Origin: an archaeon
Lineage (GTDB): Archaea; Asgardarchaeota; Thorarchaeia; Thorarchaeales; Thorarchaeaceae
Assembly: GCA_024275415.1 (NCBI GenBank)
Contig: JAJRZD010000065.1
Coordinates: 1 to 5,625, forward strand
Length of the DNA stretch: 5,625 nt
Direction of reading: 5' to 3'
Shown here piece by piece: positions 933-5,625 of the stretch (its first letter is position 1; every line of letters starts with the position of its first letter). The notes below the pieces were generated by a model. It was not told the origin of the DNA and did no database searches. It was given only the letters and a program-made list of their open reading frames with translations. Made by a program: the position numbers and the translations under genes.

Positions 933-943
933 AAAAATAAGAG
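933..943 (-). terminator. Oligo-T terminator of tRNA-Phe
   Basis: Minus strand reads CTCTTATTTTT immediately after the encoded CCA, typical of archaeal oligo-T termination. Confidence 0.45.
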
Positions 944-1049
944 TGGTGCCGAGGGAGTGAGTTCCACGAAGGGGGAAATCCCCAGTCGATTTGAACACTC
1001 GACGACACGGTCTTCAGCCGTGCGATCTCCCGGGCTAATCTACCTCGGC
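944..1049 (-). tRNA. tRNA-Phe(GAA) with a 29-nt intron in the T-loop (59/60); CCA encoded
   Basis: Minus strand: acceptor GCCGAGG/CCTCGGC, discriminator A, CCA. D-arm GATT-AGCCCGGGA-GATC. Anticodon arm CACGG-CTGAAGA-CCGTG (GAA at 1015-1013, G37). Variable loop TCGTC. T-stem GAGTG/CACTC. Removing 989-961 restores the T-loop TTCAAAT and a 77-nt tRNA. Confidence 0.96.
961..989 (-). other. tRNA intron, position 59/60, bulge-helix-bulge (BHB) motif
   Basis: GAGTG-TTCA-AAT-CGA...TCG-TGGA-ACT-CACTC: exon helix, 4-bp central helix TTCA/TGGA (one G-U), two 3-nt bulges, intron helix CGA/TCG, internal hairpin GGGG-ATTT-CCCC. Cutting after nt 2 of each bulge gives exactly TTCAAAT. Confidence 0.93.
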
Positions 1050-1074
1050 TTGATTTCAATACGATTGCCCTTGT

Positions 1075-1082
1075 AATATAAA
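1075..1082 (-). promoter_or_regulatory. TATA box of tRNA-Phe
   Basis: Minus strand TTTATATT ending about 26 nt upstream of tRNA position 1 (1049), the standard archaeal spacing. Confidence 0.7.
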
Positions 1083-1095
1083 GGTAACGAGCCCA

Positions 1096-1620
1096 TCAGC
1101 GGATTTTGTGTGCCATGTAGCTTGCAACAATAGCGGTCAGTATGGCAGCAACATTCACACCGAGAGGATACACAAGTAACGAATCAAGGAATGACAGTGT
1201 GGCCAACCATGATGGCAGATTCGCAAAGTCCGAGATACCAAATGGCACGAAGTAGAACATCAGGAAAATGCTTGTTGTAAGAGCAACACCTACAAACGCT
1301 GGCATGTCCTCTTTCGACCTAGCGAACTCTGAGAGCTTGGTAATCAAATTCGACTTAGCCTTCTGACGCCTTCTGATCTTTCGCTTCGACATGATGTGTG
1401 CCCAGCGATACATGGCCTCTGCCATGAGCACATATGCACCCGCAAGGACAGCCATCGCTCCCAGTGCGACAATCAATTGCAGTTCCGCACTCAATACTTG
1501 CACGTACTCGGATGCATGCCACATCAGTGGGATCTGAACGAATCCTGCAATCCCAAGGAATATGAGGATAAGTCCTGGCTTACTTCCGCGTTTCCACCAA
1601 ATTGCTAAGCTCATGGTCAT
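1096..1620 (-). CDS. Hypothetical membrane protein (about 4 TM spans, polybasic central loop)
   Basis: 174-aa ORF with two hydrophobic hairpins separated by KRKIRRRQKAK. SD-like AGGTAG directly before ATG. It fills the space between the hydrolase gene and the tRNA promoter. No family recognised. Confidence 0.8.
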   Translation of the reverse strand: MTMSLAIWWKRGSKPGLILIFLGIAGFVQIPLMWHASEYVQVLSAELQLIVALGAMAVLAGAYVLMAEAMYRWAHIMSKRKIRRRQKAKSNLITKLSEFARSKEDMPAFVGVALTTSIFLMFYFVPFGISDFANLPSWLATLSFLDSLLVYPLGVNVAAILTAIVASYMAHKIR

Positions 1621-3488: not shown

Positions 3489-3549
3489 CCATTCCATCGT
3501 GCAAGACCAATCACACATGTCACACATTGGGCCGGTAGATCAGCCCGGT

Positions 3550-3580
3550 TGTCTTGTCCATTCGTGGGCTCGATAGGGAC
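3550..3580 (+). other. tRNA intron in the D-loop (~20/21), 31 nt, relaxed bulge-helix-loop motif; boundaries uncertain by 1-2 nt
   Basis: The D-stem halves are separated by 40 nt instead of 9. Proposed motif: H CCCG/AGGG (3 of 4 pairs), 5' bulge GTT, intron helix GTC/GAT, 3' bulge ACA facing AG. The product D-loop AGCCCGGTA matches the intron-free AGCCCGGGA of the tRNA-Phe in length and at 8 of 9 bases. Confidence 0.8.
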
Positions 3581-3597
3581 AGATCGCCTCCTTGGCA

Positions 3598-3625
3598 CTT
3601 GTAACGCATAGGCGTACTTCCAAAA
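3598..3625 (+). other. tRNA intron at canonical 37/38, 28 nt
   Basis: CCTCC-TTGG-CAC...CCAA-AAT-GGAGG: perfect central helix TTGG/CCAA and two 3-nt bulges. The intron helix begins with TT/TT mismatches, then GT/AC and ACGC/GCGT. Spliced loop TTGGCAT. Confidence 0.93.
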
Positions 3626-3757
3626 TGGAGGAGGTCCCGAGTTCAAATCTCGGCCGGTCCACCAATTTCTCTATAGGAATTGCATATGATGTCTAAGTTG
3701 TGTCAAAAGACGAGTAGTTGGGAATTATGAGGATTCCAATTCGAGTGACCCGATTAG

Positions 3758-4914: not shown

Positions 4915-5625
4915 ATGACCACACACACCTTTAAACGACCTACAGATGGAACCGGCATCCATTCGGAGCGGTTTTCTGACATATTCCGCATACAGACTGT
5001 GGCCTTAAAGAGCATCCATGATTTTCTCTCGGGTGCGGGGCTTGTCCAACTAATGCCAGTGATAATCTCCGCAGTGACGGATCCTCTGAATCACAGTGTA
5101 CATGAAGCGCGAATAAAGTATCAGGGGCAGAGTTTACAACTTACGAAAAGTATGATATTCCACAAACAGGTTGCCATCTCACTCCTTGGAGTCAATGGCA
5201 TCTACATTGTATCACCGAATGTGAGACTGGAACGAGAGGAAAGCAACAGGCATCTCCTAGAGTTCTCGCAGATAGACATCGAACTACGAGGCGCAAGTGC
5301 CAAACAGTTCCGATCATTCATAGAGGATATGATGGTTCGGATATTCTCAGATGTCGAGGATTCATGCTCTGTTGAGCTTGAGCGTCTTGGCACTAGTATA
5401 AGCATACCAAAGAAACCTTTCCGTGTCTATTCGAAATGGGATCTAGTCGACGAGTTCGGCTCAGGATTCGAACAAAGGATTTCTAAAGAGGAAGAGGACC
5501 TCTTCTGGATAACGGATTTTGAGAGAGAGTTCTATGACAGAGAAGATCCTGAGCGGAAAGGACATTATCACAACTATGACCTATTCTATCCCAATGGATA
5601 TCACGAGGCTTTGTCGGGTGGTGAG
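4915..5625 (+). CDS. asnA: Archaeal asparagine synthetase A (AsnRS/AspRS catalytic-core paralogue lacking the anticodon-binding domain), 3'-truncated
   Basis: Absent from the ORF track because there is no stop in the window. Translated by hand: 237 open codons from ATG 4915 (in-frame TGA at 4906 fixes the start). MTTHTF...PVIISAVTDPLNH...LTKSMIFHKQVAI...SPNVRLE...RHLLEFSQIDIE...FWITDFEREFYDRED...YHNYDLFYP...EALSGGE. Class II aaRS motif 2 (RxE..RHxxEF) and SGGE(R) are present, with no N-terminal OB fold. Confidence 0.9.
   Translation, partial: MTTHTFKRPTDGTGIHSERFSDIFRIQTVALKSIHDFLSGAGLVQLMPVIISAVTDPLNHSVHEARIKYQGQSLQLTKSMIFHKQVAISLLGVNGIYIVSPNVRLEREESNRHLLEFSQIDIELRGASAKQFRSFIEDMMVRIFSDVEDSCSVELERLGTSISIPKKPFRVYSKWDLVDEFGSGFEQRISKEEEDLFWITDFEREFYDREDPERKGHYHNYDLFYPNGYHEALSGGE

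Follow-up and report, generated by a model that had tools for sequence, protein, structure and literature searches.

A non-canonical T-loop intron in a Thorarchaeota tRNA-Phe gene and its patchy distribution among relatives

Can a tRNA-Phe gene that is interrupted within its T-loop yield an ordinary tRNA and, if so, what accounts for an intron in that place? The locus that raises these questions lies in a 5,625-nt stretch of Thorarchaeota DNA (hereafter, the window), which is the whole of a 5.6-kb contig (C44) of MAG G000, a 3.5-Mb assembly in 127 contigs with 47% G+C, 92.9% completeness and 4.5% contamination. The window encodes a membrane protein, a 174-aa protein, a GH114 hydrolase, a methyltransferase, an Lrp/AsnC regulator and a fragment of a class II aminoacyl-tRNA synthetase. 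A sequence-only reading had placed in it a tRNA-Phe(GAA) gene whose one intron, at position 59/60, sits in a strict bulge-helix-bulge (BHB) motif; it had assigned the intron to a rare class and had proposed that it breaks up the part of the gene that many integrases use as attB. The analysis below confirms that observation and partly supports the interpretation.

Results

Removal of 29 nt restores tRNA-Phe(GAA)

The 106-nt precursor of tRNA-Phe(GAA), with an encoded CCA, is read from the minus strand of the window (Table 1). Standard finders pass over it: ARAGORN calls no tRNA anywhere in the unspliced window, and the Rfam tRNA model also misses the site, its one match to the window being weak, partial and located at 3595-3661. 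Once the 29 nt between the two exons are deleted, ARAGORN calls the remaining 77-nt sequence tRNA-Phe(GAA). In this spliced form the acceptor stem has 7 bp and the T-stem 5 bp, and the T-loop reads TTCAAAT. A73 and CCA are present, as are A14, G18, G19 and G20 in the D-arm, and the anticodon loop, CTGAAGA, is uninterrupted. The predicted product is identical at 76 of 77 bases to a natural tRNA-Phe gene, the intron-less syntenic orthologue in L006/L066, and this match independently fixes the extent of the intron.

The 5′ exon is conserved among relatives, and a CTTTATAT motif at the matching distance upstream is kept in most of the orthologous loci. Searches with Infernal, ARAGORN and sequence similarity detected no second tRNA-Phe in the 92.9%-complete, 127-contig MAG, although unassembled DNA might carry one. 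One candidate on contig C43, reported as tRNA-Phe(GAA) by ARAGORN in intron mode, is instead a class II tRNA-Ser(UGA) with a 32-nt canonical intron. The acceptor stem of this tRNA-Ser is identical to that of tRNA-Phe. As the sole tRNA-Phe found in the MAG is invisible both to ARAGORN and to the Rfam tRNA model, the tRNA complements of Thorarchaeota MAGs are under-called.

Table 1. Positions of the tRNA-Phe gene, its intron and related features. Entries without a contig or locus name refer to the window; arrows mark predicted splice sites.
Feature	Position	Strand	Description
tRNA-Phe(GAA) precursor	1049..944	minus	106 nt, encoded CCA
tRNA-Phe 5′ exon	990..1049	minus	Acceptor 5′ strand, D-arm, anticodon arm, variable loop, T-stem 5′ strand and T-loop nucleotides 54-59
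Anticodon GAA	1015-1013	minus	Within the 5′ exon
Intron, position 59/60	961..989	minus	29 nt: 1 nt, stem CGA..GGGG, apical loop, CCCC..UCG, H strand UGGA, 2 nt
BHB, 5′ side	992..1000	minus	h GAGUG 1000-996; H UUCA (U54-A57) 995-992; then bulge AA↓U 991-989
BHB, 3′ side	955..966	minus	H strand UGGA 966-963; bulge AC↓U 962-960; h strand CACUC 959-955
Helix h′	988-986 with 969-967	minus	CGA/UCG
tRNA-Phe 3′ exon	944..960	minus	U60; T-stem 3′ strand 959-955; acceptor 3′ strand 954-948
3′ exon end	A73 947; CCA 946-944	minus	CCA encoded
TATA-box-like element	1074..1082	minus	TTTATATTA, centre ~29 nt upstream of tRNA position 1; read from sequence
Five-T run	933..937	minus	Resembles an archaeal oligo-T terminator, six bases past CCA; read from sequence
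174-aa protein gene	1099..1620	minus	No Pfam family; immediately upstream of tRNA-Phe
tRNA-Ala(GGC)	3529-3664	plus	Interrupted; G3:U70; encoded CCA
tRNA-Ala canonical intron	3598-3625	plus	28 nt; H4, h5, h′0
tRNA-Ala D-loop intron	about 3550-3580	plus	~31 nt; relaxed motif (H3, h0, h′3)
tRNA-Ser(UGA) in G000	C43:79658-79778	minus	Class II
T-loop intron sites in G000	C118:40511, C117:22839, C117:14794, C82:9049, C10:34080, C72:3222
RtcB gene in G000	C127:36594-37904		PF01139
L042 tRNA-Phe, partial and full	about 6350-6396 and 5090-5196	minus	
L045 tandem partial copy	1119 and 1295	plus	5′ exon and part of the intron
G012 tandem partial copy	C6:63622-63710 with 63801-63906		5′ exon and part of the intron

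The T-arm and the intron form a strict BHB motif

Both exon-intron boundaries fall in a BHB motif of which the T-arm itself supplies one half. The outer helix (h) is the T-stem, GAGUG/CACUC (5 bp), and the central helix (H), UUCA/UGGA, is paired at all four positions, once as U·G. Two 3-nt bulges, AA↓U and AC↓U, lie on opposite strands, with the splice site after the second base of each. On the far side, helix h′ has 3 bp only, beyond which come an internal loop and a GGGG/CCCC hairpin of 4 bp. With h of 5 bp and h′ of 3 bp, the motif has the strict hBHBh′ form, in which each of these helices has at least 2 bp.

The position of the intron is set by the motif as well as by the product. Seven different 29-nt excisions would leave an identical mature T-arm, and the full BHB (H4, h5, h′3) forms at 59/60 only; among 200,000 shuffled versions of the intron, a fraction of 6e-4 gave H = 4 with h′ ≥ 3. 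Drawn as a BHB, the segment made up of T-arm and intron has an energy of -15.0 kcal/mol against an MFE of -15.8, a gap of 0.8. The MFE fold of the full precursor (-41.2 kcal/mol) is not the cloverleaf with BHB (-36.5 kcal/mol), and tRNA precursors usually have an MFE fold other than that one. In-silico splicing and folding thus bear out what the sequence-only reading had said of the gene itself, from the identity of the tRNA and the coordinates of its single intron to the strict geometry, the restored T-loop and the intact anticodon loop.

Splicing enzymes and a proposed pathway

Two EndA homologues (PF01974) are encoded in G000. The one on contig C69 (190 aa) is alpha-like: it scores 1e-43 against chain 3P1Z_B, from the heterotetramer of Aeropyrum pernix, aligns with this chain from residue 11 to the end with two short gaps only, and retains the Tyr, His and Lys motifs. 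This alignment spans the stretch in which crenarchaeal enzymes carry their specific loop, the loop being judged from the alignment only. The other homologue, on contig C117 (213 aa), has diverged and lacks the catalytic His, which is what one would expect of a structural beta subunit. Asgard archaea have been reported to possess an (alpha-beta)2 EndA whose L1 loop enables non-canonical cuts (Kaneta et al. 2018, PMC5829648). The predicted G000 pair fits this (alpha-beta)2 type, which along with epsilon2 is the kind of host enzyme expected for non-canonical sites. For exon ligation, G000 encodes RtcB, with a PF01139 match of E 9e-175.

We propose the following pathway. In the precursor, U54-A57 of the T-loop would pair with the UGGA near the 3′ end of the intron, and the resulting 4-bp helix, flanked by the T-stem on one side and by a helix internal to the intron on the other, would complete the strict BHB. 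An endonuclease of the heterotetrameric (alpha-beta)2 type would then cut between the second and third bases of either 3-nt bulge, and RtcB would join the exons and probably circularise the 29-nt intron. Only in the spliced molecule could the T-loop take shape and make its contact with the D-loop. We infer from the motif and the enzyme genes that cleavage and ligation take place in vivo at the predicted bonds. Taking everything together, the best explanation of the locus is that tRNA-Phe(GAA) is very probably a functional, single-copy gene with one non-canonical, protein-spliced intron at 59/60.

Intron states at orthologous loci

An exact pattern drawn from the 5′ exon retrieved 59 loci from public genomes, nearly all of them of Candidatus Thorarchaeota. 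In nearly all loci the 174-aa protein and the methyltransferase are encoded just upstream of tRNA-Phe (60-86% identity by tblastn), and this common upstream pair makes the tRNA-Phe genes positional orthologues and assigns the contig to the Thorarchaeota.

When orthologues are aligned, as the sequence-only reading had suggested, the intron does prove patchy. Across 77 tRNA-Phe gene copies, classified from two overlapping retrieval sets in which some species occur twice, 36 are intron-less, 14 have a single intron at 59/60, 7 at 56/57, 2 at 53/54 and 1 at 58/59, in 5 the intron lies towards the variable loop (43/44 to 47/48), and 2 have two introns. The 59/60 intron occurs at ten loci of the public species set (L033-L091), among them L045 and L048, the latter with two introns. 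Examples of the other states are L040, L065, L072, L084 and L087 (variable-loop side), L052, L054, L071, L074, L083 and L091 (56/57), L038 (53/54), L042 (58/59) and L048 and L068 (two introns). The syntenic tRNA-Phe gene therefore has introns at a minimum of five (at least 5) positions in the T-arm and variable loop across species.

Four other loci have an intron of the window's type at the same site, with 23-25 of 29 bases identical: L056, in the window's genus, and L049, L051 and L069. These introns retain the H helix and the stems through compensating changes. L045 also has a window-type intron, in a record interrupted by N's. Elsewhere in the window's genus, G002, G003 and G006 are without a T-loop intron, and G004 has a 59/60 intron of a different sequence.

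On a tree of the two neighbouring proteins, the tips show the intron states in a scattered pattern: L036 (59/60), for instance, adjoins L058 (no intron), and L052 and L083 (56/57) lie among L037 and L077 (no intron). The presence and absence of introns among such very close relatives indicate that turnover, by gain, loss or both, is fast. In AU tests, a single clade of all 59/60 holders on the tree was rejected (p-AU 3e-72), and grouping into one clade the four holders of the window-type intron that the tree includes was not (p-AU 0.085). Given the latter value, vertical descent with losses may account for the window-type intron without lateral transfer. The neighbour-gene tree and the AU data are compatible alike with gain, loss and transfer.

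Several loci have partial copies of the gene. In L042, a 47-nt 5′ fragment of tRNA-Phe occupies the ancestral place beside the gene for the 174-aa protein; the full tRNA-Phe gene, with a promoter of a different type, lies 1.2 kb downstream, and a 335-aa ORF of no known family lies between the two. L064 has a 5′ fragment of tRNA-Phe only. In L045 and G012, a tandem partial copy takes in the 5′ exon together with some of the intron.

T-loop introns of a common build

The window intron has counterparts in the same genome. At least five tRNA genes of G000 have a 59/60 intron of 29-31 nt: those for tRNA-Phe, tRNA-Ile(GAU) and tRNA-Asp(GUC) and the genes at C117:14794 and C82:9049. All five introns have one build, in which 1 nt is followed by a stem of ~9 bp with an apical loop of 5-6 nt, an H strand of four bases that pair with U54-A57, and 2 nt. 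The apical loop reads AYUYC in four of the five (UCUUC in the tRNA-Ile intron), and the same loop occurs in one 56/57 and one 58/59 intron of G000 and in most of the sequence-distinct 59/60 tRNA-Phe introns of other species, the stems of which differ at most positions and stay paired. The window intron is a slightly degenerate example, with one base missing from the 3′ strand of the stem. Most T-loop introns of G000 (56/57, 58/59 and 59/60) thus share an AYUYC pentaloop on ~9-bp stems of unrelated sequence; inspection of the resolved G000 introns at other positions did not reveal this loop.

Pattern searches gave a less sharp picture. Across 86 Thorarchaeaceae genomes, matches to the build were about twice as many as in a reversed control, many of them with obviously complementary stems. 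Within G000, a scan for a 9-bp stem with an AYTNC loop (H = 4) returned 9 matches against 4 in the reversed control, barely above it, and an initial scan of T-loops was too permissive (330 hits versus 148). The assembly holds no second copy of the 29-nt intron at 4 mismatches or fewer, and the window intron shares only its build and the AYTYC loop with some of the other T-loop introns of G000, not the identity of 70-80% or more across isotypes that would mark a transposed family of the Thermoproteales type. On sequence and predicted fold, the window intron belongs to a Thorarchaeota-wide set of putative ~30-nt T-loop introns of common build.

A BHB-aware census of G000 covered ~45 candidate tRNA loci and resolved about 31 of them: 14 are uninterrupted, and ~16 are convincingly resolved with one or two BHB introns, at 10/11, in the D-loop and at 37/38, 44/45, 53/54 and 59/60. 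The 14 loci left without a call suggest relaxed motifs or three or more introns. One census call, 'Asn' on contig C30, is spurious. The window itself has a further interrupted gene, for tRNA-Ala(GGC), with a canonical intron and a D-loop intron (Table 1); the census call for this gene was wrong.

Alternative explanations

Three alternatives deserve consideration. The one that survives best concerns the origin of the intron and is compatible with a functional, spliced tRNA-Phe gene. It holds that the T-loop introns are a mobile or copied family and that the tRNA-Phe intron came by transposition or gene conversion out of another T-loop, or out of the tRNA-Phe of another lineage, rather than by vertical descent. 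The AYTYC loop shared on unrelated stems by four of the five 59/60 introns, one 56/57 and one 58/59 intron of G000 points this way, as do the recurrence of the build in many Thorarchaeaceae genomes, the 23-25 of 29 bases that the window intron has in common with introns in another genus, and the state of its own genus, where G004 has a different 59/60 intron and G002, G003 and G006 have none. The rejection of one clade of 59/60 holders is also in keeping with mobility, and intron transposition has been proposed for Thermoproteales (PMC4090602). However, the 29-nt intron is without a further copy in G000 at the mismatch level searched, a clade of the four window-type holders is not rejected, and the pattern count reaches only ~2x the reversed control. 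The common build may, moreover, reflect the constraints on a compact BHB hairpin, and a 2026 census of other Asgard classes reported almost no cross-isotype families and no arrival route (10.64898/2026.10.13.758758). On balance we consider a mobile or copied origin unlikely.

A more specific version of this idea, to which we give less credence again, is that the ~30-nt T-loop introns (1 nt, 9-bp stem, AYTYC pentaloop, UGRR, 2 nt) are one actively spreading family. Some unknown factor or mobility mechanism would then recognise the conserved apical loop, and the family would move between the T-loops of different tRNAs and in and out of the tRNA-Phe genes of sister species. Improbable as we judge it, such a family, if it exists, would offer a concrete approach, defined by sequence, to the unsolved problem of how archaea gain tRNA introns.

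A second alternative is that the intron persists because, by interrupting the 3′ half of the tRNA gene, it spoils an integration site (attB) for viruses or other integrative elements. Here the sequence-only reading restates an idea of Randau and Soll, that tRNA introns protect against integration, which is relayed in a review (PMC4090602). The hypothesis is thus a published one, SSV-type integrases target the part of the gene from the anticodon loop to the T-arm (PMC4090602), and partial copies of tRNA-Phe lie beside full genes in a few Thorarchaeota loci (L042, L064 and L045). Yet the partial copies in these other loci are 5′ parts of the gene, not 3′ parts, and the ORFs beside those of L042 and L064 have no integrase signature in Pfam, PHROGs or the PDB. 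No integrase domain is encoded in the window, and the assembly contains no att-like remnant of the 3′ part of tRNA-Phe or of the spliced T-arm. In addition, the intron is absent from most orthologues, and intron gains were unlinked to mobile elements in the 2026 census (10.64898/2026.10.13.758758). We therefore regard protection of an attB site as highly improbable. The single near-match to the 3′ exon, a 17-mer on contig C110, lies in sequence that shows no tRNA features, looks unrelated and is probably coding. For the T-loop intron, no function is indicated beyond its being tolerated.

The last alternative, that tRNA-Phe is a pseudogene inactivated by a 29-nt insertion while a working copy lies elsewhere or unassembled, can draw on the incomplete assembly (92.9%, 127 contigs) and on the failure of standard finders to call the gene, but it is exceedingly unlikely, because the insertion lies in a perfect BHB and its removal restores every conserved tRNA feature, the same intron occurs with compensating changes in four other species, promoter and synteny have been kept, interruptions of this sort affect many other tRNA genes of G000, and no other tRNA-Phe can be detected in the assembly.

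Discussion

The functional, spliced tRNA-Phe(GAA) gene favoured here would, taken alone, be a matter of routine annotation. More broadly, the series of orthologues over dozens of Thorarchaeota species, with intron states that change between sister taxa, is a compact natural data set, useful for studying how protein-spliced introns are gained and lost in the archaea most closely related to eukaryotes. In the literature searched, we found no description of the tRNA-Phe gene of the window or of its orthologue series.

The canonical archaeal intron at 37/38 has an identical geometry: each base of the T-stem and T-loop at 59/60 has its counterpart in the anticodon stem and loop, and cleavage and ligation are expected to follow the same chemistry. 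By contrast with the canonical intron, that of the window lies in the T-arm and sequesters U54-A57, so that the elbow between T-loop and D-loop cannot form before splicing.

The closest parallels in other archaea are the non-canonical BHB introns of Thermoproteales and Crenarchaeota, which include introns at 59/60 (Marck and Grosjean 2003 and Sugahara et al. 2008, as relayed in PMC4090602). Those at 59/60 have the same position, the same strict hBHBh′ of T-stem and T-loop, a short hairpin intron and a host with an (alpha-beta)2 EndA, whereas the host of the window intron is an Asgard archaeon, of the Thorarchaeota. Thermoproteales also provide the model for transposition families, which in the accounts given of them elsewhere (Fujishima et al. 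2010, via PMC4090602 and the 2026 preprint) have similar length and build across isotypes and a patchy distribution. Relative to those families as so described, the likeness among the G000 introns is one of architecture and of the 5-nt apical loop only; the stems differ, and the search brought up no near-identical copy of the window intron.

Among Asgard archaea, heavy loads of non-canonical tRNA introns have been reported (Valentin-Alvarado et al. 2024, PMC11291895). A recent census found T-arm introns to be common and mostly in canonical BHB motifs, with repeated gains on terminal branches and no arrival route found (Goswami et al. 2026 preprint, 10.64898/2026.10.13.758758). Published Asgard tRNA genes, like those of the window genome, have non-canonical and multiple introns and are accompanied by an (alpha-beta)2 EndA with an L1 loop. 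The published studies centre on Atabeyarchaeia and Jordiarchaeia/Freyarchaeia, and the text of the 2026 preprint never names Thorarchaeia; compared with the published genomes, G000 has a lower intron load, with 14 of ~45 candidate loci called uninterrupted. That the window intron belongs to a rare class, as first suggested, is a view that these comparisons do not sustain: 59/60 is already among the listed non-canonical positions (Yoshihisa 2014, PMC4090602), at least five genes of this kind are present in G000, and T-arm introns are common in Asgard archaea. With 59/60 listed and the intron richness of Asgard archaea published, the window intron is of a known kind in a lineage where it is to be expected; it is a real and ordinary non-canonical BHB intron.
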